This document shows positions 2,493 through 20,000 of a DNA stretch of 20,000 nt, in pieces (position 1 is the first letter of the stretch; each line of letters begins with the position of its first letter). Source of the DNA: Massalongia carnosa (lineage: Eukaryota). The notes under the pieces were generated by a model. It did not search any database and had not been told where the DNA came from. It was given only the letters and a program-made list of their open reading frames with translations. The DNA lies in NCBI GenBank assembly GCA_965645245.1, contig OZ287081.1:1974746-1994745 (forward strand), read 5' to 3'. A program made the translations under genes and the position numbers.

Positions 2493-2618
2493 GCTAGGTG
2501 TAAGGTAAATGAGATGGTTCTATGTCACGTGAGGCCCCTGAGTCAAAGTAAATTAAGAATCACCCTCTGAAAATTCTTTCCTCATTCACTTCTTCTCACT
2601 CGGCCTCATCCATTTCAA

Positions 2619-2734
2619 TGACTCGTCGTCGACCCCACGTTGTCTCGGTGCCCCTACCTCGCTGTCAGTGCTTGCTGCTTTTCCAATCTCACTGACTCGT
2701 CGTCGACCTCACGTTGTCTCGGTGCCCCTACCTC
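2619..2734. repeat. 42-bp direct repeat (2619-2660 and 2693-2734, one mismatch) upstream of gag
   Basis: tgactcgtcgtcgacc(c/t)cacgttgtctcggtgcccctacctc occurs twice, separated by 32 bp. Confidence 0.95.
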
Positions 2735-2737
2735 CCA

Positions 2738-3751
2738 ATGACGAACACCCGTTCCCAAAGCACCTTGATGGACGACATAGTCCCCGACCCCCAGGAGATT
2801 GTCGGATTGACGCAGGCCCAATTCAATCAAATCTTCGCCCTACAAAAGAAGAAAGCCGAGGCGGAAGCGAAGGCGGCCGAGGCTGAGGCTAGAATTGCCG
2901 AGTCCAAGGCATTGGTCGCCGAGAAGGAGGTGGAAAAAATGCAGCTAGAAATCGACTGCATGCGCCGAGAATCTGACGCCCGAATAGCGGCCGTCATTCC
3001 TGCTGGCAAGCCGAGTCGTGTCGTCGGCGATGACGACGAGGACCTAGGTGAGATCCCTCTCGAAGTAAGAAGCATAGCACCCCGTTTCGCGGGCCTACCA
3101 CAGGACGAGATCATCAAGATCTTTTCAAATAAATTCGAAGCCATCCACCTCTCCCGCCTCCGACACATGCACGGCATGCAATACGAGTCATACAAGGATC
3201 AAGACCGCATCGGCATCGAAGACGGCGCCTTGAGGTTGAGAAAGGCATCCGGGACCTACAAAGATTTCGGAAAGACAGTTCATGACGTCTGGACCGAGAG
3301 CTTCATCAACTACACCTCGATCATGGTCAGTCTTTTCGGGAAATCGAGTCAACAGCTTCACGCCACCATGTCGGCATTCCACGGAAAAATCTTCACGCTG
3401 GCCAAGGTGTACGAGTGGCAGGAAGCAGTCCTCCCCCTCGCCATCGAAACCCACACCCACATCATCGCGTCTCAGCCATCCGACGCATCCCAATGGAAAA
3501 TGCCCGACGAATTCCAAGCTCGATTCTGCACCCCCCTCACAGTCCTACGCCGTCGCCGCTCACGATCCCCGCCGTCCCGACGACCGACCCCGAGAGGAGA
3601 CAGGGCCGAGAGGGCCGAGAAGGCAGCGGGGGAAATCTGCGACAAGTACAACAGCGGCACCTGCACCTGGCCGTCGTGCTACCGACAGCACAAATGCAAA
3701 TCGTGCGGCGCGGCTGGGCATGGCCAGAAGACATGCCCAACGAAGAAATAG
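2738..3751 (+). CDS. gag: Gag-like protein of the YR retrotransposon
   Basis: First ATG at 2738; N-terminal coiled-coil-like segment (KKKAEAEAKAAEAEARIAE), Arg/Ser-rich tract, and C-terminal CDKYNSGTCTWPSCYRQH (CCCH) plus CKSCGAAGHGQKTC (CCHC). Confidence 0.85.
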   Translation: MTNTRSQSTLMDDIVPDPQEIVGLTQAQFNQIFALQKKKAEAEAKAAEAEARIAESKALVAEKEVEKMQLEIDCMRRESDARIAAVIPAGKPSRVVGDDDEDLGEIPLEVRSIAPRFAGLPQDEIIKIFSNKFEAIHLSRLRHMHGMQYESYKDQDRIGIEDGALRLRKASGTYKDFGKTVHDVWTESFINYTSIMVSLFGKSSQQLHATMSAFHGKIFTLAKVYEWQEAVLPLAIETHTHIIASQPSDASQWKMPDEFQARFCTPLTVLRRRRSRSPPSRRPTPRGDRAERAEKAAGEICDKYNSGTCTWPSCYRQHKCKSCGAAGHGQKTCPTKK

Positions 3752-3796
3752 GGGGTTGGTGCAGGAGGTAGTAGAATAGCTTCAATAGCTGAATTC

Positions 3797-4983
3797 ATGA
3801 CGTCCCATCCCTGCTTACCTGCACCAATCAGACCAAATACAATCCCTTCGTTTCAACTCGTAGACGCATCTCGTCAGCGTTTGAAAGACAGCCCCTCTCC
3901 CCTCGTACCGTCCGCATGGGCAACCCTACTTCAAGAGTATCCGGGCCCCCTCCGAGTCCATCTGCCCATGATCCTTCGTTTCGGAGTACAAATCGGATAC
4001 GAAGGCCCCACAGACATCCTTCGGATCGAAAAAAATCTTACATCAGCGAATGAGGACCCGGAAACGATCGAGAATAAGCTTCAAGAGGACCTCAGGAAGG
4101 GCCGAGTCAGACGAATAGCCGCCCCGAGTCAGCCATTTGTGGCCTCCCCCCTCGGCTTGGTCCCGAAACATGACGGAGGATGGCGACGCATTCATCATCT
4201 GTCTCATCCCAATCAAACATCAGTCAACGACAACATTCCAGAAGAGGCATCCAAATTACAATACGCCAGACTCGACGACATTATTCAATTGATTCTGTCA
4301 GAGGGCAAAGGTGCTGTCATAGTGAAAAGAGACGTCAAAGACGCCTTTCGAAACGTTCCCGTCGCACCTCATCATCAATGACTTCTGGGTTTCGGATGGA
4401 ATGACGAATTCTACACCGAGACATGCCTTTCGTTCGGACTGTCGACGGCCCCGTTCATCTTCAATCTTTTTGCGGAAGGCTTTCATTGGATTTTAGAATC
4501 CTTTCTACAATGGAGATTACATCACTATCTAGACGACTTCGTTGCAATTTTCCCATCCGAGACATCGTCAGAACGATTGCACCAAGAAACAAAAGCCTAC
4601 AACATTCTCACCGACATTCTCGGCATCCGGAGAAACGACTCAAAAGACGCCGAGGGAACGACAGCGACAGTCTTCGGACTCGAGGTCGACACAATCAACA
4701 GTCTTATTCGTCTGCCAGCGGACAAGCTGGAAAAAGCGAGAATCATCACTACAAAGGCACTAAACGAGACGACAATCAGCCTCGGCGACATGCAGTCAAT
4801 AGCGGGTTTCCTAAGCTTCTGCGCATAGGCAGTCAAATTGGGCCGAGTCTTCTTACGATTATTCTGGAATTTTATAGCCTCATTTCCCTCGGGCAGTCAT
4901 CGTCGGGTCAAAAGAAGAATTCCCACATGGGTCAGACAGGGTCTAATCTGGTGGAACAAACTTTTAGTGGACTTCAACGGTAT
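3797..4983 (+). pseudogene. pol: Reverse transcriptase of the YR retrotransposon (5' part of pol), with two in-frame stops
   Basis: SPLGLVPKHDGGWRRIHHLS, KRDVKDAFRNVPV, LSFGLSTAPFIF and YLDD (4526-4537) all in one frame; TGA at 4379-4381 (likely Trp) and TAG at 4826-4828 (likely Gln); cut by the LTR at 4984. Confidence 0.9.
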
Positions 4984-5142
4984 TGTTGCGTCTAGGCAAG
5001 ATTATACGAGTGTTGAAAGATGTTAATTAAATGAGCAAGTCTGCTCGCCTATATAAGCTTAAAATACGCTAGTCTCAATTGAGACTTCCCATAAAGGGAG
5101 CTACGACTATAGTCATAATACCATAATACCATAGCTATAACA
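4984..5142 (-). repeat. 3' LTR of the Gypsy element
   Basis: 157/159 identical to 11677-11835; TG...CA ends. Confidence 0.97.
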
Positions 5143-5166
5143 GATGCCGATAAAAAAGCAAAAAGG

Positions 5167-6684
5167 TTAGCGACCTCGCTGACGCCCTCTACCCCTTCTA
5201 ACGTTGCCTTCTCTGGGTAGTCCAGCTTCGTATTCGTCGACCAATTCTTTGCAGTCCTTTAAGTCCTCTAGTTTGTACCAACCGTTATGTTCATGACCAT
5301 AGCCTTTCCATTTGACAAGGTATTGATTTTTACCCCTTGTTATCCTTTTATTTAGTAGCTTTTCTACCTCGTAGGCCGGATCCTGAACCTCGCCCTCTTC
5401 CTCTACAGGCGGGGGTTCTGGATTAGATAATCTACCGTATGGGTCTGGACCGGTATGAGGTTCGAGCTGAGCTATGGATATCACTGGATGTATTTTCATT
5501 GATGGAGGTAACTCTAACCGATACGCCAGATTGCCTACCTTCTCTAGGACTTTAAACGGACCTACTCTCTGATAGGAGAGCTTTCTATTGGAAAGACCCG
5601 GAATAGTGTATCCATGATGAAGTTTAAGAAAGGCCTTGTCTCCTATTGCTATTGGTTTGTGTGACTTGTCGTATCTAATTTTCGACATGGCTGAGGCGAA
5701 GGACATGGCGGAATCAGCTTCCTCTCTTTTGATCATACGTAGTCTGCCGAAGTCTTCTGCTGGGAGGTCTGACAGCAGACTGACAGAGTCATTGACCTTG
5801 AAACCGTAAAGCAATTCATTTGGAGCGAAGCCGGTTGAAACATTAACGGCATTATTCATACTGGTTTGAATGAAGGGTAATATACTGACCCAGTCATTGG
5901 TTTCTCCAGTAGTAAGATGATAGCGTAGGGCAATCTCAATCGTCTGATTAGTGCGCTCCGATTGCCCATCGGTCTGCGGGTGATAGGCGGTGGAGGTAAG
6001 CATGGCTACTTTTAGCTTGGAGAATATTGTTTTCCAGAAGGATGACATGAACTTGGCATCTCTGTCACTGATGATTGCGCGTGGGATTCCCCAATCATGT
6101 TGTAAGAGCGCCACTATGACTATGTTGGCCCATTGGACTGCGTCATAAGTGGTCTTTCCTTGTAGCAATAGCACCTTTTTTGAGAACTTATCAGTGATGG
6201 TGAGAAGACTGTCATACCAGTCTGGAGGCGTCCCTGGTAATGCCACTATGAAATCCATTGCTATGGTGTGGAAGGGCATAGCCGGAGTGACAATGGGATT
6301 GAGTTCTCCATATGGTGCGTGCCTCTTGGTTTGGTTCAACTGACATTCCGGACAATGCGCCATGTACGTTCTCAACCTTTTATTGAGGTGACGTATGTAG
6401 ATCGAGTTAACTATCCGATCATAGGTTCTATGAAAGCCACCATGACTGGTCCTGTCATGAGCTTGCCTGAAGATCTCCTCCTCTAGGGAAGCGGGTATAC
6501 ATAATCGCTCTCGCCCATCGTCGGCTGATACGTAGTATAATAATCCATTTCTATAGCGAAAGCGAATTCCAATGCGGGAGCCTTCTGGTGGGGTGGAATT
6601 GTCGTTCGTCAATTCGGTTGCCTCGCCTTCGTTGATTGAGGACAGGTCGCTCTCCTTTGGTTTTATTAGGTTTAAAATCTTTTC
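5167..6684 (-). CDS. pol: Gypsy integrase with GPF motif and chromodomain (C-terminal segment of gag-pol, after an in-frame TGA)
   Basis: HHCC (AHDRTSH...CPEC), DDE (IAMDFI / IISDRD / GQSERTN), VGPFKV and chromodomain YEVEKLL...YLVKWKGY...W; same frame as the upstream RT/RH segment across TGA 6685-6687. Confidence 0.92.
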   Translation of the reverse strand, partial: EKILNLIKPKESDLSSINEGEATELTNDNSTPPEGSRIGIRFRYRNGLLYYVSADDGRERLCIPASLEEEIFRQAHDRTSHGGFHRTYDRIVNSIYIRHLNKRLRTYMAHCPECQLNQTKRHAPYGELNPIVTPAMPFHTIAMDFIVALPGTPPDWYDSLLTITDKFSKKVLLLQGKTTYDAVQWANIVIVALLQHDWGIPRAIISDRDAKFMSSFWKTIFSKLKVAMLTSTAYHPQTDGQSERTNQTIEIALRYHLTTGETNDWVSILPFIQTSMNNAVNVSTGFAPNELLYGFKVNDSVSLLSDLPAEDFGRLRMIKREEADSAMSFASAMSKIRYDKSHKPIAIGDKAFLKLHHGYTIPGLSNRKLSYQRVGPFKVLEKVGNLAYRLELPPSMKIHPVISIAQLEPHTGPDPYGRLSNPEPPPVEEEGEVQDPAYEVEKLLNKRITRGKNQYLVKWKGYGHEHNGWYKLEDLKDCKELVDEYEAGLPREGNVRRGRGRQRGR

Positions 6685-9600
6685 TCAATATTCGTCATCA
6701 TCGTATGCTTTTTTGAGCCTATTTTTGAACTCATCCGCCATTTCTACCAGTGTGACGTGATAGGCTACGGGAGCTAGGTCTGGTAGTAGGGAACTTAGCT
6801 CATGCTGAGCCAAGTTAACCGGGCATCCATACAAGGCTTCCAGTTCGCCTATCTTTTCAGCTGTAGATACGTCTGCTTGAAGGCGTGATAGGGCATCCGG
6901 GACGATGTTGGTTTTACCAGATTTGTGACGCAGAGTAAGATTGAATCCAGACAAGTACTGTGACGCCCGAACGAGTCTTAAGTTAAGCTTATCAGTGCTC
7001 GATGTAGTCATACTGGTTTGACGGGAGATGGGAATAGCGGCCGAGTGATCAGTGTATATGATGGTAGGTGGGCATTCTGTCGATTCTATCATGTGCCTGA
7101 TTTTTCGTACAACCCATACTATGCCGGCAATCTCTAGTTCAGTCGGCCAGTAGTTCTTCTCGGCGGAGTTGAGGCACCTGCTAAGAAACATAATCGGTTC
7201 AATGTCAGCTTGGGCGGGATAAGCACTTGGAATGATGAGAATATCGCCTTTGACATGATAGATTATAGCGGCGAATCCCCAGGATTTCGAGGCATCTAGG
7301 TCCACATAAAGACGGCGTTTGGGGCTGAAATGAACCAGAAATCTAGGAGACCTGAACGCGTCTTGCAAGTCCTTGAAGGCTAGCACTTCCTCTGTGGTCG
7401 GGTCATAGAAGAATACTCGAATAGAGTGCCGTTTACGGGCAGGACCCCTGGAACTGACCGGGAGCGTACGTGTTAGCGCGGTTTTTCGTTCTTGAAGAGG
7501 ATTTGCTCTTTGAGCGTATCGCGGGATAGACGTCCGCAACCACCCGGTGAGTCCAAGGAATATTTCTAAGTCTCGTAGATTGATTGGGAACAACAGAGAC
7601 GTAATAGCGGCTATTTTTTCTTCTGATGTTGACATTCCCAAGGAGTCCACGCGCTGACCGAGTAGTATGACGGATGGATAACCCAGAAATGACTTGGAAG
7701 GTGCTAGACTGACTCGTTTGAGTCGAAACGTGTCAAACAGCTGTCGTAAATGAGCTACGTGCTCTTTCAGAGTGCTGCTGAATATAATGATGTCGTCCAT
7801 AAAAGCTCTAGCGAATTTACGGTACGGCCGTAGCAGCCTGTCAGTTTGTCGTTGAACATAGGGTGGAGTTCCTTTATATCCCATTAAGGCTACTCCGAAT
7901 TCCTCTTGTCCCCTATGACTAACAACGGTAAGTTTGTGCCGATCCTTGTGTTGAACACTAAACTGGTAGAACCAGCCCACTGCGTCCACCGTACTGATAT
8001 AAGGATAACCGGAGACCGCTGCGATGATATCGCTTTGTGAAGGCAAGGGATAGCTATCTATTTCCGTAATGTCATTTAGTCCTCTGATATCTATGACTAC
8101 TCTACCCTTTCGTCCACTTGGAGTATCCTTCCACACTACGAAGCATGGATAGCTGAACGTTGTAGGTTGAGTGGTGAACTTAAGTTTTCCCTGTTCCTGA
8201 AGCTTATCAAAAGTTGTGTCGATACATTCTTTATCTCTTCGTCCTACCGGGTACACCTTCGCGGGCGGTTTTGGTACGACACCTGATTTCAGGTTGATGG
8301 GCATCCATTCTTCCTCCGGAATGTCCACGGTCGTACCCTGATCGATGAACACATCTTGGTATTCAGTGACAAGGTCAGAGAGCGGTTGATTCATACCGAT
8401 ATGGCCATAAACGGTAACTGCGTTAAATAGCTTCATCTTCATATCGGGAGCTATAACTGAGGTGGGTTTTATCGAAGTGGTGGTATCAACACCGATTGTG
8501 CCACTAGATGATACGGATGTGGCATAAGCCGTAGCCATTAAGGCCGCTCCCTTTGTGATTAATGATCTTATAGATCTTCCAGTCTTCCATCCTGACGTAG
8601 CTAGATGGGCTTCCGCTGGTAATGTCATGTAGCATCCATGGTGCGTGTATTCTACCACTGATCCTAGGCGAGCTCTCTTCGGAAGAACCACCGGAGTGCT
8701 GGTAGCGTTATGAATGTTTACCCATGATAGGTCAGTGTCTACTATGTGGGCGAAAACGCCTCCCTCATGCCCCAAGTCATGACTGGCTGCAAGCTGTGGT
8801 TCGAAGAGAAAATCTCTGTCATCTGGTAACTGTCCATTGAAAGTGACTGGTACGCGCATGGTCGTTCCAGGAAGAACAGTGAAGGCATTCTTAGATCGGA
8901 TCGTGCGCTTGATGTGTGGAGCAACACGGGCACGACTGTTGATGGGTATCTTGATGCCCTTGCAACTATCGATCGTCATGATCTGCTTCCCTAAGTCTAA
9001 GGTCATACCTTGAGGCGTCATGACGTCGTTTCCTATGAGTAGATTGACTTTCAGGTCATCTACTATGTGGACCTCGATGATTATTACGCCGGTAGCAGGA
9101 CCATCCTTGGAGATTCCATCAAGATTTACCTGTACAAGAGCTACTTCATCTGTTCTTACCTCGCCTTTACCTACTCCACGAATAGGAACCGGAGATGCCA
9201 TTCTAGTGATGACGAGATCCGGAACATGCTTCTGTAGATAAGCACGATCTCCCATAGTAACCGAAGTTCCGGAATCCAAGCATATTTCTGACATCAGAGC
9301 GGAGCTTCCATAGGATACTTGAGCGGTAGCATAGTGATAACCTCGAAAGGCATATCCAACACCCTTGGTTTTATCAGGGCTGATAGTTGACATTATTTTC
9401 TGTCTAAGATCGGTAGAGGAGGGTGATGTTTTTACGACCGCTAAGTTAGGTGAAAGCTTATCCTTGGCGACTGTAGTCATCATGCTGACTGTAGTCAGCG
9501 TATCCTCCGTTTGAGACCAGCAGTCCTTTCGTAGATGGCGAAATAGTTTATTCCTTGATGAGAAGGAGGCCGCACATCTTGTGCAGAGAAAAATACTTGG

Positions 9601-9756
9601 TTCGACCGGAACAACAAAATTTGATGTTTCCTCATACTGGTATGGGTACTCTTCTTCCGAAAACTCCTGCTCGTTCCGTTCTTCTGCAAAGTGTGTTCCT
9701 AGCTCTTTCTCGTAGTTCCCGTAATCATCCTCGAGCTCCTCTGAGACCGAAGTCTG
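6685..9756 (-). CDS. pol: Gypsy zinc finger-protease-RT-RNase H segment of gag-pol, bounded by in-frame stops
   Basis: CTRC...HLRKDC finger (9520-9585), protease CLDSG, RT GRVVIDIRGLN / FMDD (7792-7803), RNase H VDLDAS / TELEIAG / YTDHS / NIVPDALSR. Confidence 0.92.
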   Translation of the reverse strand, partial: QTSVSEELEDDYGNYEKELGTHFAEERNEQEFSEEEYPYQYEETSNFVVPVEPSIFLCTRCAASFSSRNKLFRHLRKDCWSQTEDTLTTVSMMTTVAKDKLSPNLAVVKTSPSSTDLRQKIMSTISPDKTKGVGYAFRGYHYATAQVSYGSSALMSEICLDSGTSVTMGDRAYLQKHVPDLVITRMASPVPIRGVGKGEVRTDEVALVQVNLDGISKDGPATGVIIIEVHIVDDLKVNLLIGNDVMTPQGMTLDLGKQIMTIDSCKGIKIPINSRARVAPHIKRTIRSKNAFTVLPGTTMRVPVTFNGQLPDDRDFLFEPQLAASHDLGHEGGVFAHIVDTDLSWVNIHNATSTPVVLPKRARLGSVVEYTHHGCYMTLPAEAHLATSGWKTGRSIRSLITKGAALMATAYATSVSSSGTIGVDTTTSIKPTSVIAPDMKMKLFNAVTVYGHIGMNQPLSDLVTEYQDVFIDQGTTVDIPEEEWMPINLKSGVVPKPPAKVYPVGRRDKECIDTTFDKLQEQGKLKFTTQPTTFSYPCFVVWKDTPSGRKGRVVIDIRGLNDITEIDSYPLPSQSDIIAAVSGYPYISTVDAVGWFYQFSVQHKDRHKLTVVSHRGQEEFGVALMGYKGTPPYVQRQTDRLLRPYRKFARAFMDDIIIFSSTLKEHVAHLRQLFDTFRLKRVSLAPSKSFLGYPSVILLGQRVDSLGMSTSEEKIAAITSLLFPINLRDLEIFLGLTGWLRTSIPRYAQRANPLQERKTALTRTLPVSSRGPARKRHSIRVFFYDPTTEEVLAFKDLQDAFRSPRFLVHFSPKRRLYVDLDASKSWGFAAIIYHVKGDILIIPSAYPAQADIEPIMFLSRCLNSAEKNYWPTELEIAGIVWVVRKIRHMIESTECPPTIIYTDHSAAIPISRQTSMTTSSTDKLNLRLVRASQYLSGFNLTLRHKSGKTNIVPDALSRLQADVSTAEKIGELEALYGCPVNLAQHELSSLLPDLAPVAYHVTLVEMADEFKNRLKKAYDDDEY

Positions 9757-11043
9757 TTATGCCTTCTGTTGAGGTCTTACGTGGTCAGACCAAGTACCAC
9801 GATTAGACCCTGGTTGCTGCTGCGGGTTCGTCATGGGACGAAGAGGTTGTCTAGGACCTCCGGGTGCGTTTGAAGGTACGTCCGCGATCTGAGGACGTTG
9901 GAACTGATTGGAGGGTACAGAAGCTGGGGCTCTTGCGTTTACGTTGGATAGGTTGTTCTGATAGCGAGGATCTTGTCGTGTCTGTTGTGAATATCCGTTG
10001 TGTTGGAAGCCACCATTGGGTGTACCCAGATATCTTTTGTCGAAGTATCCCTGTAATTGCTGAGGCATGTAAGTCTGACCAGTTTGCGGAATACGATAAG
10101 ATTCTCTATAAGGAAACTGATGCTGATCCTGAAAAAGCGACTTGTTCTGTTGAAAAGGCACTTGAAAAGGCCGTTGAAATGAACGAGAAAGAGACTGAGA
10201 AGGTCCTCCTCTTGTTTCGAACTTACTAGGTTGAATACGAGTGACCGGATGAGAGCGAGGTGCCTTGGCCCGAGCCAGCCAGTCATGCTTACACTCATCC
10301 ATGTCCTGAAGAAATTCGCTCAAGGTAGTGCCTTCCTTAGGCCTACGAAGGTCGCTTTGTCGCATCTCATTGTCTATACCGTTATAGATAATGTCCAACT
10401 GATTCTGCACACTGGTCATACCAGCATCCTTCGCAGATCGAAGCATCTTTTGGGCATACTCGCGTGGTTCCCGTCGATTAGCCGCGTCACGAATGGTGTA
10501 CTTCTCATGTAAGATGGCATCCATAGCTATGTTGGATGGCTGCTGGAACCTCCGTAAGAGTAACCTCTCCCATTGGCCTATCGATGTGTCTCGGCTGCCT
10601 GCTAGCTTGGTCATCTCCCGCTTATCGTCATCCAACTCACTGTGCCACCACTCCAATGCTTCGCCCTGTAAACACATCCACAGATTATTTCTCACTACGG
10701 CAGCACCCTTGGTGATGGCCATTTCCTTAGCCCTCTGGACAAAGAGATGAACGTCTCGGAAGTAAGTCTTGGTACCGTCATGTTCTATAGCGTTCCCGGT
10801 GCTGATAGACTTTTCATCGTAATTGGGATCAAAAAACCCTAACTCGGAAGATACCCAACGTGATTCTCCCCGAGGAGCACCAGCAATGGATCCTCCGTCC
10901 TCTGTGGACACACCAGGGTCAGGTGGGGAAGTTTTGGCAGCGGCAACGGCATATTTGGCTAGGGCATCTTCGACTGCCTTGTTGACCAAGGCTTCGATGT
11001 GAGCTTGGGATACAGTGGCTGCACTAGCGCTGGACCCGGCCAT
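9757..11043 (-). CDS. gag: Gypsy Gag-like protein (first in-frame ATG at 11043; the frame is open to 11622)
   Basis: Position after the 5' LTR/PBS; capsid-like segment LQGEALEWW...LLRRF, then a Gln/Pro-rich low-complexity region; in frame with pol across TAA 9757-9759. Confidence 0.8.
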   Translation of the reverse strand: MAGSSASAATVSQAHIEALVNKAVEDALAKYAVAAAKTSPPDPGVSTEDGGSIAGAPRGESRWVSSELGFFDPNYDEKSISTGNAIEHDGTKTYFRDVHLFVQRAKEMAITKGAAVVRNNLWMCLQGEALEWWHSELDDDKREMTKLAGSRDTSIGQWERLLLRRFQQPSNIAMDAILHEKYTIRDAANRREPREYAQKMLRSAKDAGMTSVQNQLDIIYNGIDNEMRQSDLRRPKEGTTLSEFLQDMDECKHDWLARAKAPRSHPVTRIQPSKFETRGGPSQSLSRSFQRPFQVPFQQNKSLFQDQHQFPYRESYRIPQTGQTYMPQQLQGYFDKRYLGTPNGGFQHNGYSQQTRQDPRYQNNLSNVNARAPASVPSNQFQRPQIADVPSNAPGGPRQPLRPMTNPQQQPGSNRGTWSDHVRPQQKA

Positions 11044-11664
11044 CTCTCTTGGTTCGATGGGTTGAGGAGTAGTGCTAGGGGGACGGTTAGTATTGTCGCG
11101 TTCCGCGAATGGCTGATAGGTTGGATGCTGTCTATGAGGCTTAGTTCTTATTCGATAGTCCTCGAAGACCGCTGTCCGGATGTCTTTTTCAGACCAGTTT
11201 GAAGGGTACGAGATAGTCTGAGAGCGTGTAACTGAACGGGTTCTGGCGCCAGAGCTTTCCGAGATCTCCCGTAAGCCTTCTGGTCGAGGAGAGACTGTAA
11301 CCAGGTACTTGACAAAGCTTGCTATGCGAAGAGGTAGTTCCAAGGTCAAGCTGGGATGGTCCGCCAACAGGTCGTGGATCTGAAAGGTCAGAACGAGAAG
11401 ATCCGCTTCCACGGGGATGGGGATGGAAGATGGAGCCAGGGTGATGGCTGTTCCAGTCAATGTACTGGTGGACAGGCACAGTAACACGGATGAAAGATAA
11501 GATGAAAGATGTGCAGGATAGTAAGGTCGGATGTGAATGTCTGCTAAGGCAGACCGAGCTTGGTTGAGTTCCTCAGCAAACAACTGGTGCCGGAGGACTG
11601 GCGATAGCTGAAGACGTATCAATTGGTGTCTAGAAGCTATCGTACTGGAATCAAGAAATCAAAA

Positions 11665-11675
11665 CAGTGCTACCA
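11665..11675 (-). other. Putative primer-binding site of the Gypsy element
   Basis: Minus strand reads TGGTAGCACTG one base after the 5' LTR. TGG complements tRNA CCA, and TGGTAGC resembles initiator-Met PBSs. The tRNA was not verified. Confidence 0.6.
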
Positions 11676-11676
11676 T

Positions 11677-11835
11677 TGTTGCGTCTAGGCAAGATTATAC
11701 GAGTGTTGAAAGATGTTGATTAAATGAGCAAGTCTGCTCGCCTATATAAGCTTAAAATACGCTAGTATCAATTGAGACTTCCCATAAAGGGAGCTACGAC
11801 TATAGTCATAATACCATAATACCATAGCTATAACA
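11677..11835 (-). repeat. 5' LTR of the Gypsy element
   Basis: 157/159 identical to 4984-5142; followed on the minus strand by a PBS-like TGGTAGC. Confidence 0.97.
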
Positions 11836-12357
11836 GGTATTGTCTTCTTTAAGACGTCAACACGAGACACGATCAAGGTGCATACGGATGCATGCCTCAC
11901 GGGTCTCGGAGGCTATTTTAAACAAGACAACGAGCTCGTGAATCAAAAAAACGCATGTAGGGCCCGAGTCCTAGTCCTCAATCGGGAAGAATCACCGAGC
12001 ATAAACGTCCGAGAAGTCGATACTATCCTTCTAATCCTTCAGAAATGGGCGCCGACATGGCGATATCGGCAGATCCTTGTCTTTACCGACAGCATCACAG
12101 CATATACAGGATTCACGAATCTAACCCTCAAGGGACCGGCCAACGCGCCTCTACGAGAAATACAGTCTATAGCTGCAAAGTGGGACATCGTACTACGTTG
12201 TCAATGGATCAGTGGCACTTCCGATGGACTAGCAGATGCCCCGTCACGTTTTGATGATGAAAGATTGGCTAACTTTTGCCCTCATTGGCAGAACCCATAC
12301 AATTCGATGAACCTCCCTCCACCTACCTATCCTCCACACCAGGGTCAGCCCTGGTAA
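11836..12357 (+). pseudogene. pol: RNase H of the YR retrotransposon (3' part of the interrupted pol)
   Basis: Continues ...DFNG-IVFFKTSTRDTIKVHTDAC; HTDA, INVRE, VFTDS and DGLADAPSR (degenerate NxxADALSR). Confidence 0.88.
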
Positions 12358-13439
12358 AACGCCTCGTCTGGCACGGACACTCGGTGGACACGAGAAAAGG
12401 GTACGGGACGGCGATCGACTCATACGAGGCATTCTGCGCGACGACGGGACGCACGTCGTGGCCTGCAACAACCGAGTCCCTCGAGGAGTGGCTAGCCGGT
12501 GGACTATACGGGGGCGGCACACCCAAGCAGGGAAAGATAAAACCAGAGACGGCAGCGAGCTACCTCGCCGGCCTCAGATCATACCATGTAGACCGAGGAT
12601 ACGGCCTCACCCCATTCGAGGGGCCGAGACTTCAATTGATCCTGAAAGGGGGAAAAAGTATCTTTTCTCAGACAAAAAGAAGACGCCTACCCATTTCAAA
12701 AGAATTACTAACAAAAATCATCAGTATTCCCGCTCATTCGGCCGAAGACCTCAATATCGACGCGACATTCAAAGTTGCATTGGCAGGGTTCCTCAGACTC
12801 GGGGAATTCACCTACACTGTCGCCTATCGGAAGAAGACATCTTTTCAGAGATTGAAACCTACACGAGGTGACATCTCATTCGCCGAGAACGATCAATACG
12901 CAAAATTACGTCTCAAAAGAAGTAAAACAGACACAAATCACTCAGGAGTTCAGATGTTGCTGGCAGCGACCAATGAGAGCACTTGCCCCGTGACAGCACT
13001 ACGGCGTCTTTTCAGAAATGATCCTCAGCCATCTACATCCCCTCTTTTTCGTCTCGGCACCGCATTCACCAAGGTCTGCGTCATAGCATCCCTGAAAAAG
13101 AGACTGATAGCCGCCGGCATCAACGACTCGGCATACTCGGGACACAGGTTCAGAAAAAGAGCAGCACAACACGCCGCCGACCATGGGATGCTGGATGAGA
13201 GTATTCAGAGACTCGGAAGATGGTCATCAAACGCGTTTCAGCTATACTTTCAGACGTCCCAGGCCTCACTATTCAATTTGAACCTCATTTTTCAAAAAGG
13301 CATCCCTCTGGCAGTCCCACGTGCTGTCGTCGCCGAGACGAATCCTACAAACTCCTACACCTACTCAATTGGGCATTCCACTGGGCGTACAGGTCAACCA
13401 GGTCATCGCTCCGGAGCGCCGCCGGGCACCTCCATCTAG
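12276..13439 (+). CDS. Tyrosine recombinase of the YR retrotransposon (no ATG at the 5' end)
   Basis: N-terminal SAM-like region (TRKGY...YLAGLRSYH); catalytic residues R (GFLRLGEF, 12795), K (RSKTD), HxxR (GHRFR, 13143-13154), W (LGRW, 13221) and Y (FQLY, 13245); overlaps the RNase H frame. Confidence 0.92.
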   Translation: MPSLAEPIQFDEPPSTYLSSTPGSALVKRLVWHGHSVDTRKGYGTAIDSYEAFCATTGRTSWPATTESLEEWLAGGLYGGGTPKQGKIKPETAASYLAGLRSYHVDRGYGLTPFEGPRLQLILKGGKSIFSQTKRRRLPISKELLTKIISIPAHSAEDLNIDATFKVALAGFLRLGEFTYTVAYRKKTSFQRLKPTRGDISFAENDQYAKLRLKRSKTDTNHSGVQMLLAATNESTCPVTALRRLFRNDPQPSTSPLFRLGTAFTKVCVIASLKKRLIAAGINDSAYSGHRFRKRAAQHAADHGMLDESIQRLGRWSSNAFQLYFQTSQASLFNLNLIFQKGIPLAVPRAVVAETNPTNSYTYSIGHSTGRTGQPGHRSGAPPGTSI

Positions 13440-13726
13440 ATCATCGCCGTCGGGCACTGCCGTCGGGCATCATCTATCGGATCGCTGAGCGTCAGCAGAC
13501 GCCTGGGGCCTAGAAGATGAGGTTCTCACCTCAGCACCAACCCCGAGTCACGAGCCTAGGCCTGCCCGGGCTGACCTGTGTCGTTCCCATGCCCAATCAA
13601 ATTCAAGCATTCAAATCAATTCATCCAATTAAAAGCCCCCCCAGCGCAAGCGAAGGAAACGGCACCGGTAAGGGTCATAGAACGGGAGTTTAGACTAGAG
13701 TTGAGCTAATTGTAATTTTAAAGTAT

Positions 13727-13765
13727 CCCTCTCGCTGTCATTCTAGCACCCCCCTCCCAAGCTAA
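13727..13765 (+). repeat. piggyBac left TIR
   Basis: ccctctcgctgtcattctagcacccccctcccaagctaa, the reverse complement of 15855-15893 at 38/39. Confidence 0.93.
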
Positions 13766-13927
13766 TCTATATTGGACTAGCTTCCGTACCGATGAGTCAT
13801 CAGAACATTAGTTTTCTCTAGAGTGTTTGCGCGTTTGTTTACTTTTCAAAGAATACTATTCGGTCATTCAATCAAAATAAATCACATAAATTATTATTCT
13901 TCTAGCTTCGGAATTGATATTATAAGT

Positions 13928-15760
13928 ATGACGCTCAATGAAGAAGAAATCCCGAGTGTATCAGACAAATCTCCCATTTCAGCGAAGCAACATAAAATAA
14001 ATCGCAAAAGAAGTGTTCGGGATATTTTAATCGACCTTCCCCCTATTTCCTCAAAATATACCCCCATTCGGGTTGAAAACAGGCCTTTTGTTCCGCTCGT
14101 TGAAAACGATTCTCGAAATCCTTTGGGATTATTTCGGTTATTTATAACAAGGCAGCATTGTCGTATCATCGCAAATCACACCAATATCAAGGCAAATAAC
14201 TACATGGAAAAGGAGAAGGAGAACAATCATCGGGTTTGGACTGACACTACTGACTCGGAAATTGAGGTTTTTTTGGGCATATTAATTCTTATGGGACTCG
14301 ATCATCTACCTGCTACAGAGGATTATTGGAATCAACGTCCTGACAAACCAGTTATCATGCCTATTCTGTCCGCGATGTCGCTTGGTCGATTTCAACAAAT
14401 CAAACGATTTTTGAAAATCAATAATAGACAGACTGAGCCTATCGGACTTGGTCAAGGACCTGATTTGTGGAAGAAACTGGAACCGTTGGCTACTGATTTC
14501 CGAAAGACTTCATTGAAACATTGCAGACCAGGAAGTATGATATCTATAGATGAACAGCTGGTGTTATTCAAGGGCCGTTCTCGACATACCTTGCAGATTA
14601 CTACAAAAAGTGCCCATAAAGGATTTAAAATCTACAGTCTCTGTCAGGATAATTATCTGTTGTCATTTATGTTTGCCTCGAAGAGTAGCAGAATAAGTGA
14701 ATTGAAAACAGTCAGACAATTGGGATTTTTGCCAAAAGATAAACTAACTCCTAGTGCTTTGCTAGTGATTCAGTTATGTAAAGAACATCCATCCTCACTG
14801 AATTATCATCTTTTCTGTGATAATTTCTTTACTAGTACGAAATTATTCAAGGCACTTCGATCAATCGGAATAGCTGCCAGTGGAACTGCTAAAAAGGGCT
14901 CGGGCTTTCCAGAAGAATTTTTGGCCATACGGGACGTCACTTCAAAAGGAAAAGACTGGGGTCTTCAGGCCCATATGGTGGTCGACGATAAGGTGCTTTG
15001 TATGGGCTGGGTGGATAATAATGGTGTGCAGTACATGACCACCGGTCATTCTCCTCAGGACTTGTACGAAATGCACTATATAAATCCGCACAAGAGATAT
15101 GGAATTCCCGAGACCTCTCTTCAACCTATTGTATCGTATTTCCCATCAACTCTGGCTCACTCTATTCCCTTGCTCAATCAAGAGGTTCAACGGCCCTTAG
15201 GATTACCGATACCAGCCCCAATCAAAGAATATAATCTTCATATGGGTGGATCGGATGGAAACGCTCAGCAACGAGCGATTTACTCATACAATCGTCGAAC
15301 GGATCGTTACTGGTGGCCTTTGTTCATTTTTATTTTAGATGCAGCCGGATTGAATGCCTATAAACTTTACTCGCTGAACTCTTTCGATTCCGAGGAGATA
15401 AAATTTACTCGTTCTGAATTTCTTCGTCGGATTGCTCTTGAACTGATATCAAATCAAGCGGGCATCAGGCCCGGCTCATCAAAGATAAGCATCAATACCA
15501 CGATTGATGCTTTAGTACCATCTCCCATTCATCATTACGTTCGTCTTGAAGGCAGAAAAAGATGTGTGCAATGTAACGCCGAGAAAAAACGACCTTCAAA
15601 GCGGAAGGGAGAGCCACTGGCTGAAATAAGTGTCGATGGGCGTAAAAGAAGGCGAAGGGGTGCTCAGATTATATGGGCTTGTGGAGGATGTAATCCAATC
15701 AGGCCCTGCTGTAAGAAAGCCAGCTGTTGGGAAGCTATTCATATGATAGGGGACGAGTAA
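13928..15760 (+). CDS. piggyBac transposase (DDD) with C-terminal Cys-rich domain
   Basis: Uninterrupted ORF from ATG 13928; ISIDEQLVLFKGR, LFCDNFFTS, YNLHMGGSD, WWPLF; C-terminal CVQC...CGGC...CC...CW and basic NLS-like KRRRR. Confidence 0.92.
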   Translation: MTLNEEEIPSVSDKSPISAKQHKINRKRSVRDILIDLPPISSKYTPIRVENRPFVPLVENDSRNPLGLFRLFITRQHCRIIANHTNIKANNYMEKEKENNHRVWTDTTDSEIEVFLGILILMGLDHLPATEDYWNQRPDKPVIMPILSAMSLGRFQQIKRFLKINNRQTEPIGLGQGPDLWKKLEPLATDFRKTSLKHCRPGSMISIDEQLVLFKGRSRHTLQITTKSAHKGFKIYSLCQDNYLLSFMFASKSSRISELKTVRQLGFLPKDKLTPSALLVIQLCKEHPSSLNYHLFCDNFFTSTKLFKALRSIGIAASGTAKKGSGFPEEFLAIRDVTSKGKDWGLQAHMVVDDKVLCMGWVDNNGVQYMTTGHSPQDLYEMHYINPHKRYGIPETSLQPIVSYFPSTLAHSIPLLNQEVQRPLGLPIPAPIKEYNLHMGGSDGNAQQRAIYSYNRRTDRYWWPLFIFILDAAGLNAYKLYSLNSFDSEEIKFTRSEFLRRIALELISNQAGIRPGSSKISINTTIDALVPSPIHHYVRLEGRKRCVQCNAEKKRPSKRKGEPLAEISVDGRKRRRRGAQIIWACGGCNPIRPCCKKASCWEAIHMIGDE

Positions 15761-15854
15761 ATAGGTATCTGATACTCCGTAGAACTTCTTGTGAATAGGA
15801 ATAACATTAATTGGTCAAAAGTTTAAGGTTTAGCGATTTCTAACCAACAATGGT

Positions 15855-15893
15855 TTAGCTTGGGGGGGGGGTGCTAGAATGACAGCGAGAGGG
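15855..15893 (-). repeat. piggyBac right TIR
   Basis: ttagcttggggggggggtgctagaatgacagcgagaggg. Confidence 0.93.
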
Positions 15894-16292
15894 ATAATGT
15901 ATCGAATAGAGAAGGATTAATTATGAATAGGCAAATAGGCCTTAGGGTCGACGCCTACTCGCCAGCTTTCCTTCGCTTTTGCATTTGCCTTAACTAATAT
16001 ACGGGCGTGAGTAAGCCGAGGCACTGCCTACGACCCCGCCCTCGGCCGCTGACCCAATCCCTGGCGAGGTGCCCACGCCAGCCAGACCTAGGGTTTTATG
16101 TACATTCAGAGTATTTCTCTATTCCGGGGATCACCTCGATTCTTAGGGGGAGCCATGCCAGAGGAAGGCTACTGACGGATATCCTCGGTAACAGCAACAG
16201 CCTTGGATTTGCATGCCGAGGTGTCGACTGGTTTCCTAGAGTCTACCCTTTACTCAAACTTACGGCGGATATACATTTTGTACGCCGCGGAA

Positions 16293-18304: not shown

Positions 18305-19793
18305 TTAAGGCGTGAAATTATCCTTTTTAATCAACGCCCGTTGAGAGTTAAGGCCTCTTCTCTTTTTGCTTCAATCTAATATTGATTAGCAAAGCCCGTA
18401 ATGTGGTATTCATTGTGGTAGTTAAACTTCGGCACGATATCCAACCTTTAAGGAAAGTTGATTAAATGTCGACGTCTTTTTACAGGACTCGGAATTTAAG
18501 TGATTAATCATGCAATTATTTCCAGACACCAGTGAGGGATGAGTCAAGACCAGGAAGCATCGCGAGCAAATTATTTTGGGATTACCTATGCCTACAGTGG
18601 CGCTTTCCTGAAACTCTTTCTATTCCGCTGCCTTTCTTTTGGTCGATCCCCAATCGATCTTCTTCATCGCCTTTCTACTCTTCTCTTTATTAGTAAAATG
18701 CCATCTCGTACTATGCCACCATTCCATAAACTCCTGCTCTTCTCGGCTATATATCCGTAGATAGATAGATAATTCTTACACCGTTGTGACTCTAGCCATA
18801 AGGGCCGGCCCATGCGGGATGTGTGCTATTTAGGCTAAACGAGAATAACTTTTTAAGGGACAAAAACCTCTTACCTGTCGTTGGGTCAACGCTATGCCAA
18901 CAACCCAAATGCGTTTTGTATGTACGTGTGTTTTTAGGCTGACTACCTAACCAAGTGTGTTGACTTATTGAGACTTATACAGTTGCTGCGTGGCTATTGT
19001 AAACTATTCGAAGAGGCCACTTTTTATTAACAATTCAGTGACGATTTTCATTTTGTTTGGACTTTCGATAATAATACGGTACTCCGTCGCTTCTACGGCT
19101 GTCAAGGACTGAGTTAGGGATTGAACTAATGTTCCTAAGACTGGGATTGGGTGATAAAGAAGTCTTTATTAATAAAGCTATAGTTACGGGATAGTTTGCT
19201 ATACAAGACGTCGGACGAGGAGTCAACTATCTACAGGATATTTCCTCTTTTTATACCTGAGCCAGCCCCTTCTTTCTCATGTTTTACCAGCATCCTAGAT
19301 GAGTTATTTTGGTGATAGTGGCGGCAACAAGTTTGAGCGATAAGTGGGCCAGGGGATTTTATCGTTCTAGCAATAAGAGGGTATAGTGGAGTGAGGAGAT
19401 TTGTATGGTAGAGTAAGGGGTTTATTCAGACTCATACCTAGTAAAAATCTGAATAGGCATTCAGGTGGCTTTTACCTCGATCGCCGCTTGACGATTCGGT
19501 AATTATTATATTTTAACTAAAACTTTATTTCATGACAACGGCGCTGAGCATGCTTCTTCTGTCCTGTAGGCGACAATGTATTATGATATAGTCTGCCGTT
19601 TGGTAACTCTACCCGCACGGGCATGCCGCGCTCTAAATACATGGAACGCGCTGTTTGTATAGAAATAATGCCAAACCTATCTTTTCCGTCCTGATTTATG
19701 TAGCCAGCGCATTTTCCGCGTTGGCCAATACATCACGTATCTTTAGTCTTTTTTTGTCTATTGAGGATGACTGGGCTGCGACGGGTAGGCGCT

Positions 19794-19802
19794 GGAGGGT
19801 GA

Positions 19803-19843
<41 letters not shown>
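19794..19843 (+). repeat. Telomere-variant repeats: GGAGGG, TGAGAGGG, then 6 x TGAGGG
   Basis: Directly visible immediately proximal to the TTAGGG array. Confidence 0.95.
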
Positions 19844-19844
<1 letters not shown>

Positions 19845-20000
19845 TAGGGTTAGGGTTAGGGTTAGGGTTAGGGTTAGGGTTAGGGTTAGGGTTAGGGTTA
19901 GGGTTAGGGTTAGGGTTAGGGTTAGGGTTAGGGTTAGGGTTAGGGTTAGGGTTAGGGTTAGGGTTAGGGTTAGGGTTAGGGTTAGGGTTAGGGTTAGGGT
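19844..20000 (+). repeat. Telomere (TTAGGG)n, 26 perfect units to the window end
   Basis: G-rich strand runs 5'->3' toward the end of the sequence. Confidence 0.99.

Follow-up and report, generated by a model that had tools for sequence, protein, structure and literature searches.

Conserved splice signals in gag and ahead of a start-less recombinase frame suggest retrovirus-like subgenomic splicing in a fungal Ngaro retrotransposon

The window analysed here is a 20,000-nucleotide (nt) stretch of Massalongia carnosa (assembly GCA_965645245.1, contig OZ287081.1, positions 1,974,746 to 1,994,745, forward strand), and it carries a Ngaro-type retrotransposon whose tyrosine recombinase (YR) open reading frame (ORF) lacks a start codon. 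Judged from the sequence, this recombinase is very probably made from a spliced, retrovirus-like subgenomic mRNA in which the gag start and 103 gag codons are joined to the YR frame. Donor and acceptor signals lie in the same phase, both are conserved at the nucleotide level, and a joined form exists in relatives. A first-pass annotation of the window had proposed a spliced subgenomic RNA for the recombinase, and the proposal now gains support from the conserved signals, from start-less relatives and from a joined database protein, P0148. The predicted splice (a slash marks exon-intron boundaries throughout) consists of the following features:

3045..3053, plus strand: predicted 5' splice site TAG/GTGAGA, phase 1, exon end 3047
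2738..3047, plus strand: predicted coding part of exon 1, comprising Gag codons 1-103 and the first base of codon 104
12268..12273, plus strand: branch-site motif GCTAAC (CTRAY), the TAA inside which closes the YR frame upstream
12274..12291, plus strand: pyrimidine-rich spacer and 3' splice site CAG (12289-12291)
12292..13439, plus strand: exon 2, tyrosine recombinase, 381 whole codons plus the split codon, 12292 being codon position 2
YR ORF, plus strand: frame open from 12273, stop at 13437-13439, weak Phage_integrase match

The YR frame is closed upstream by the TAA at 12270-12272, inside GCTAAC, and its first Met is residue 228 (12954), downstream of catalytic R175, at the coordinates first annotated. 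Relatives' DNA came from one metagenome scan, in which 599 pattern matches gave 127 confirmed and 80 kept loci, 47 of them with N-terminal coverage; six of the 47 were left out because the YR start was cut or deleted (L001, L012, L018, L019, L025 and L027), and the remaining 41 loci plus the window form an acceptor set of 42 sequences, or 29 clusters at 80% nucleotide identity. The main group reads ADALSR-FD-x4-[IL]-A-[ND]-x-C-P-[HQ]-W-Q in the RNase H (RH) frame, with nucleotides ...GCTAAC NNN TGY CCN CAY TGG CAG. The apparent recombinase 'start' codon takes its first base from the end of a variable RH-frame codon and its TG from the conserved Cys codon, and in 32 main-group sequences this NTG is GTG in 19, ATG in 5, TTG in 4, CTG in 3 and absent in 1. 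The window has TTG at 12276, the codon where relatives' database proteins begin. The YR search found 164 homologues, 120 of which were listed, and at least 20 start with M-x-x-L-A-[EG]-P here; JGI records print V or L at the same codon and prokaryote-style callers print M, because gene callers accept GTG and TTG starts. An own ATG of the recombinase, suggested by that 'M' and named by the first-pass annotation as evidence that would count against splicing, was dropped as a candidate, since the relatives' DNA mostly shows a non-ATG NTG. The first YR Met of relatives lies far inside the ORF, and the start-less frame is a family trait, not decay of the window copy.

The acceptor region proposed at first pass stands: GCTAAC is followed by a pyrimidine-rich spacer of 15 nt, TTTTGCCCTCATTGG, and then CAG. 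In 40/42 sequences, CTRAY is followed 6-34 nt on (mostly 16) by a first AG that is YAG, in phase 1, and the exon starts at YR codon position 2, 5-8 residues ahead of the conserved PP motif. The chance expectation for CTRAY...YAG in one phase is 0.016 per 30 nt (237 sites in 150,894 nt). Two sequences are exceptions, the distant L063, which has an internal stop, and the degenerate L028, whose five cluster mates have the site. The RH codon carrying the branch 'CT' is GCT in 18 sequences, ACT in 4 and TCT in 1, the CT being invariant (23/23) while the residue varies; in the adjacent ADALSR motif, all four bases occur at the third position of the two Ala codons. TGG is followed by the Gln codon CAG in 20/23 sequences and by CAA in none, and in the three loci without CAG after TGG (L020, L042 and L044) the His is replaced by CAG 6 nt upstream with the phase kept. 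At the split codon, the YR-frame residue is E, G, D, A or V and the first base is always G. L002 and the L021 group have CTAAC...TAG/ in phase 1 in a different coding context. Variable sites up to TGG CAG are third positions of the RH frame, and YR-frame conservation begins right after; pol tails past TGG CAG are 3-25 residues long and unconserved. Selection thus appears to switch frame at the acceptor, from the RH frame before it to the YR frame after it. No second acceptor-like site, positionally conserved within gag-pol, was found.

The donor, also as first described, has the sequence ggacctag/GTGAGATCC with exon end 3047, and it splits a GGT codon (Gly104 of Gag) in phase 1. The gag-pol of the window contains only two GTRAG pentamers, of which only that at 3048 is in phase 1. 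A phase-1 N/GTRAG occurs at the homologous gag codon in 16/16 gag sequences (the window plus 15 loci, ~12 lineages), after a poorly conserved helix and acidic stretch and directly before the conserved core (E-x-x-P-E-V-K-S...). The codon pair at the donor is GGT GAG in 13 sequences and CGT GAG, AGT GAG and GGT AAG in one each; residues therefore vary (G, R or S, then E or K) while the pentamer is constant. Other G-E dipeptides in gag-pol are written GGT GAG in 1/22 cases. GTRAG is ~3-fold rarer than random in gag-pol (29 in ~44.6 kb), and the donor is the sole GTRAG of gag-pol in 9/16 sequences. The conservation of donor, branch site, acceptor and phase in relatives, which the first-pass annotation had put forward as a check, thus comes to 16/16 at the donor and 40/42 at the acceptor.

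The same design is found in a distant clade with 33-36% YR identity, represented by five loci in two subfamilies (L056, L057, L060, L064 and L065), in which the YR is start-less as well. All five have, directly after ADSLSR, a phase-1 acceptor in which GCTGAY leads through pyrimidines to CAG/, and a phase-1 donor C/GTGAGT in gag that is the sole GTRAG within gag-pol (5/5). In L057 and L065 this donor is the sole GTRAG anywhere upstream of YR (2/5); additional GTRAGs lie in the flank upstream of gag in L056, L060 and L064. Introns in this clade would be 2221-2250 nt long. The gag and pol ORFs of this clade overlap and are not in frame, and the Gag N-terminal exon spans ~200 residues. A SAP domain considered for these Gag N-termini was dropped, as Pfam found neither SAP nor any other domain there.

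With 3047 joined to 12292, the reading frame stays open for 485 codons, and the junction and the fusion of 103 amino acids of Gag to the YR are as the first-pass annotation wrote them. The stretch skipped is 9244 nt in the window, where a Gypsy long terminal repeat (LTR) retrotransposon sits inside pol. It is 2387 nt in an uninterrupted copy, because empty-site copies lack the 6857 nt of the insert; this length, also claimed earlier, is borne out by a joint 4978->11836, skipping exactly those 6857 nt, in three of four other runs (X2, X4 and X5). In 13 loci the donor-to-acceptor distance is 2351-2563 nt.

Proteins with the predicted junction are present in databases. Against 1.84 billion representatives, a profile search returned 27,318 matches at E <= 0.001, of which 150 were listed, and several proteins among the matches listed have N-terminal extensions ending at profile positions 7-10. 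P0148, a single record of 324 amino acids on a contig of 2222 nt, is the clearest example. Its residues 1-62 match residues 73-134 of the Gag P0280 up to the donor codon (...ADEDDE-G), and from residue 62, the Gly, it matches the YR P0277 from residue 6, the acceptor codon (...PPLAG/LLLFNPP). P0280, a 340-amino-acid Gag recorded at NCBI as a hypothetical protein of Elaphomyces granulatus, continues G-EIPPEAIEV past the donor codon, unlike P0148. The joined form is contiguous, because the 2222-nt contig is too short for a 2.35-kb intron; P0148 has two indels compared with P0277. In P0225, on a contig of 2605 nt, an acidic stretch runs into the YR precisely at the acceptor position of L030, a relative. 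Both P0148 and P0225 are contiguous ORFs on short contigs of unknown molecule type. P0019, from a Logan contig of 11084 nt, begins with 65 Gag-like residues, up to ...DEDDIL-G, which continue into the YR at G-Y-x-T-A-I-D-S-Y-E. We infer that the joined form arises by RNA splicing in vivo.

Several observations weigh against this interpretation. An intron of 2.4 kb is very long for fungi. No 3047->12292 joint was seen in the four other runs (X1, X2, X4 and X5), whose contigs are of unknown kind. P0148 has features that suggest a decayed DNA copy and not a transcript, so that a precise DNA deletion is possible, and P0019 joins its Gag-like N-terminus 37 codons downstream of the canonical acceptor, a junction that may reflect either an alternative acceptor or a deletion. 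The conservation around the acceptor largely also encodes the conserved C-terminal peptide of pol (...ANxCPHWQ) and is only partly independent of coding, and that of the donor is drawn from ~12 lineages in one metagenome scan. Other Ngaro clades have pol and YR in one frame, and the strategy is therefore not universal in the group; these clades agree with the published remark that both in-frame and frameshifted YR arrangements occur in Ngaro, made in the accessible text of PMC3783388.

Other routes to a recombinase can be set against the same data. Ribosomes shifting by -1 in the RH/YR overlap could produce a Pol-YR fusion, which would suit a YR frame that is -1 relative to pol and overlaps its end, and overlapping, frameshifted YR ORFs are recorded for the group in the available portion of PMC3783388. 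However, the YR frame is shut by the TAA or TGA in CTRAY six codons before YR conservation begins, and none of 32 sequences has an X XXY YYZ heptamer in the 18 nt concerned (NNN TGY CCN CAY TGG CAG); a slippery site for the YR, which the first-pass annotation held would speak against splicing, is thus absent from all of them. Variation in the 18 nt tracks synonymous sites of the RH frame and not the YR frame, pol of L010 ends three codons past the acceptor, and frameshifting leaves the conserved gag GTRAG and P0148 unexplained, all of which makes it highly improbable. Initiation of the recombinase at the NTG itself, from a lost ATG or a near-cognate start served by an internal promoter or ribosome entry, would account for the database proteins that begin at that codon, and a true ATG is present in 5/32 relatives. 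That count is below the 25% expected by chance, with GTG, TTG and CTG in the rest; the 'M' is output of prokaryote-style callers where JGI shows V or L, and the residues from the NTG to the acceptor vary with synonymous sites of the RH frame. No internal promoter came to light, although no search was aimed at one. We consider an own start very unlikely.

A short intron at the end of pol would instead fuse RNase H to the YR, with a donor in the Arg codon of ADALSR (C/GT) and the same CAG as acceptor. Such an intron is in phase in the window (12248-12291, 44 nt), and the NCBI gene model P0099 of Penicillium roqueforti reads ...ADALSR/PLGVEPP..., exactly this junction; but P0099 is a prediction that perhaps does no more than connect two frames, the GTTTTG of the window is a poor donor, and the Arg codon of relatives is CGT, CGA, CGC, CGG or AGA, so that the GT is often absent. 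With the conserved gag donor and P0148 again unexplained, the probability of this intron is very small. From the defective state of the window copy it could be argued that the signals of a dead element resemble splice sites only by chance and that random deletions produced the joined proteins in databases. Against this stand the nucleotide-level conservation at both sites, independent of residues, in 12-29 lineages plus a second clade, and P0148, which breaks at both sites to the codon; coincidence on this scale is scarcely credible.

Splicing from gag to YR would operate as follows. Unspliced RNA would serve as genome and as messenger for Gag and, via read-through of the gag stop, for Gag-Pol with reverse transcriptase (RT) and RNase H. 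A fraction of the RNA would be spliced from gag codon 104 (G/GTGAG) to the acceptor at the first conserved YR codon, removing the Gag core and all of pol (~2.4 kb). The resulting subgenomic RNA of ~2 kb would encode a 485-residue fusion of the Gag N-terminal helix, the acidic linker and the recombinase. Weak splicing of the long intron may set the ratio of recombinase to Gag, and the Gag N-terminus may give the recombinase a putative function in oligomerization or particle association. Two features of retroviral subgenomic splicing are found here: a 5' splice site within the gag coding region, in phase with the downstream ORF, and a branch site and 3' splice site directly ahead of a start-less ORF.

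A tentative and, on balance, somewhat doubtful extension of this scheme is that the spliced RNA is itself reverse-transcribed and integrated, seeding recombinase-only daughters of ~2 kb, that the design is ancestral and that the Gag N-terminus is an obligatory subunit of the recombinase. The spliced RNA could be reverse-transcribed and integrated because it keeps both element ends, and P0148, P0225 and perhaps P0019 may be decayed DNA copies of such daughters. The design may be ancestral to a large part of Ngaro because the clade at 33-36% identity has it too. If the extension holds, a Gag N-terminal module as obligatory recombinase subunit would couple integration to Gag assemblies.

In the Gag of the window, a long helix near the N-terminus (26-86) is followed by an acidic, disordered linker (87-103) and, from residue 108, by a folded core; a zinc knuckle of the form CX2CX4HX4C is also present. 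An AlphaFold model built on a 12-sequence alignment, with a mean predicted local distance difference test score of 76, puts the donor at the boundary between the predicted helix and disordered linker on one side and the folded core on the other. A fold search with this model gave no PDB match at E <= 0.001, so the name 'Gag' is based on its position, on the zinc knuckle and on homology between elements. A complex prediction for two copies of Gag 1-103 scored 0.02 and weighs neither way. A search with Gag residues 1-110 brought up no fusion from close relatives, just two full Gags that are near-identical. In the window and 12/14 loci, gag and pol share a frame and a single stop separates them. 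Relatives often have TAG CAA YYA at this stop (for example in L004, L002, L047, L008, L043 and L022), a context similar to that of leaky stops in plant viruses; in the window it is TAG GGG GTT. From the single in-frame stop and the frequent TAG CAA YYA context, Gag-Pol is probably made by read-through of the gag stop.

The remaining features of the element are these:

~2507-13682, plus strand: Ngaro-type YR retrotransposon, its ends placed by loose contig ends in other copies
2507..2684, plus strand: element 5' end, repeat part 'A', with loose ends before 2506 and a joint 2684->13382 in other copies
2738..3751, plus strand: gag ORF, 337 amino acids, ATG at 2738, stop TAG at 3749-3751, with homologous gag ORFs in 15 loci
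3752..4978, plus strand: reverse-transcriptase part of pol, in the same frame as gag behind a single TAG, RVT_1 match
4979..11835, minus strand: Gypsy LTR retrotransposon insert of 6857 nt, LTRs at 4982-5143 and 11675-11836
11836..12357, plus strand: RNase H part of pol, weak RT_RNaseH match
13382..13682, plus strand: repeat part 'B' and element 3' end, with the joint 2684->13382 and loose ends behind 13682/13683

We place the element in Ngaro, a group of YR retrotransposons in the order DIRS, on the basis of its gene order, a missing methyltransferase domain and split direct repeats in relatives. A Gag-like ORF, RT plus RNase H, and a tyrosine recombinase follow one another on one strand. In the Pfam scan, RVT_1 was above the cut-off and RT_RNaseH and Phage_integrase matches were weak; the recombinase has all of the catalytic residues R175, K218, H291, R294, W317 and Y325. 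No methyltransferase domain, which separates DIRS1 and PAT elements from Ngaro by its absence in the latter, was matched by Pfam in any ORF of the window, an argument from absence. Pol stops a few residues past the RNase H motif ADALSR...CPHWQ, and in the window its C-terminus reads ...ADAPSR-FDDERL-ANFCPHWQ, followed by an unconserved tail of 20 residues. In the relative L016, split direct repeats lie at 1-100 / 4870-4969 (A) and 4534-4666 / 5064-5196 (B), and L011 has the same arrangement. The window copy has a single A (~2507-2684) and a single B (13382-13682), and the A2-B2 expected downstream is missing. The joint 2684->13382 (A->B) occurs in contigs of the other runs X2 and X5; its ends are AA..AC, so it is not a splice, and either a solo A-B remnant or, within split direct repeats, the junction of A2 with B2 would look like this. 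Just 5' of the gag ATG, a 53-nt segment is duplicated at 74-nt spacing (2609-2660 / 2682-2734), and copies in other runs have indels across 2609-2734, one contig omitting 59 nt (2673->2733).

The window copy is defective. It carries the Gypsy insert, lacks the 3' repeats and has a TGA at 4379-4381 in the RT, where base 4381 is A>G (TGG) in all four other runs; both splice sites and the fusion frame are intact. The Gypsy insert plays no part in the mechanism and only lengthens the intron to 9244 nt in this copy. Its own long frame is broken by TGA 6685-6687 and TAA 9757-9759 (minus strand); copies in runs X1 and X2 differ from the window at 6685 and 9757, and both nonsense changes are therefore private to the window copy.

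The 20-kb window is a chromosome end and the YR element is subtelomeric. A RecQ/DEAD-type helicase ORF with one in-frame TAG (1537-1539) occupies 1-2492, and TTAGGG repeats run from ~19840 to the window end, with TGAGGG variants before them, in a terminal array at 19768-20000; the helicase ORF and terminal array make this a telomere-linked helicase setting crowded with nested transposons. One of these, a piggyBac-like transposon at 13719-15901, starts ~35 nt past the Ngaro end and has an intact-looking 654-amino-acid DDE_Tnp_1_7 ORF (E = 1e-52) and inverted ends of 52 nt (13719-13770 / 15850-15901, 90% complementary).

Recombinase expression in YR retrotransposons has so far been left at the statement that the ORF may overlap or be frameshifted, and the splice offers a concrete, testable mechanism. 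It accounts for recombinase ORFs without start codons, which mislead prokaryote-style and eukaryotic gene callers alike, and predicts a fusion of the Gag N-terminus and the recombinase that nobody has sought. For annotation, the pair N/GTRAG ... CTRAY-YAG/ could be used to model such elements correctly and to spot processed derivatives of ~2 kb. Retrovirus-like subgenomic splicing would also have arisen in a non-LTR-type, integrase-less retroelement of fungi.

The closest parallels are retroviral. In avian sarcoma/leukosis virus, the donor of the env mRNA lies inside the start of gag, and the downstream ORF borrows the gag AUG and N-terminal codons; the subgenomic mRNA spliced from gag and the borrowed gag start would be common to both systems. 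The virus, however, borrows about six gag codons for an envelope product, whereas here 103 codons (helix plus linker) would be placed on an integration enzyme, and the host context is a non-LTR-type YR element of a fungus. Foamy virus Pol is made from its own spliced subgenomic mRNA with its own AUG and is not fused to Gag. The likeness would be that an enzyme of replication or integration comes from a spliced RNA and not as a read-through or frameshift product of Gag-Pol; the difference is that here RT and RNase H would still be made by stop read-through and only the recombinase from spliced RNA. In the plant element Ogre and in the 2-kb RNA of Drosophila copia, splicing of the element transcript regulates which ORFs are translated, but both are LTR elements with DDE integrases and another exon logic, and neither is a YR element.

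Among YR retrotransposons, DIRS-1 of Dictyostelium is similar in its overlapping Gag, YR and RT/RH ORFs and differs in its inverted repeats, internal complementary region and methyltransferase domain, and the sole splicing described in the accessible text of PMC7192593 involves a marker intron of artificial origin. For Ngaro and DIRS elements, natural splicing was not found in the searchable literature, including the available portions of PMC3783388, PMC7192593, PMC13465315, PMC4157794, PMC6681497, PMC8226300 and PMC8547959, and earlier priority is possible; 'intron' and 'splic' have 0 occurrences in the searchable text of PMC3783388. The fungal Ngaro elements of that study (Muszewska et al. 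2013) resemble the present one in the order gag, RT-RNase H, YR, in lacking a methyltransferase and in their split direct repeats, and in many of them the YR ORF overlaps RT-RH in a different frame. As far as the accessible text goes, the study says only that the YR is in frame or frameshifted, whereas here a conserved gag donor and YR acceptor would explain the start-less frame. We rate the gag-to-YR splice as a variant of known retrovirus-like subgenomic splicing that is apparently new for Ngaro.

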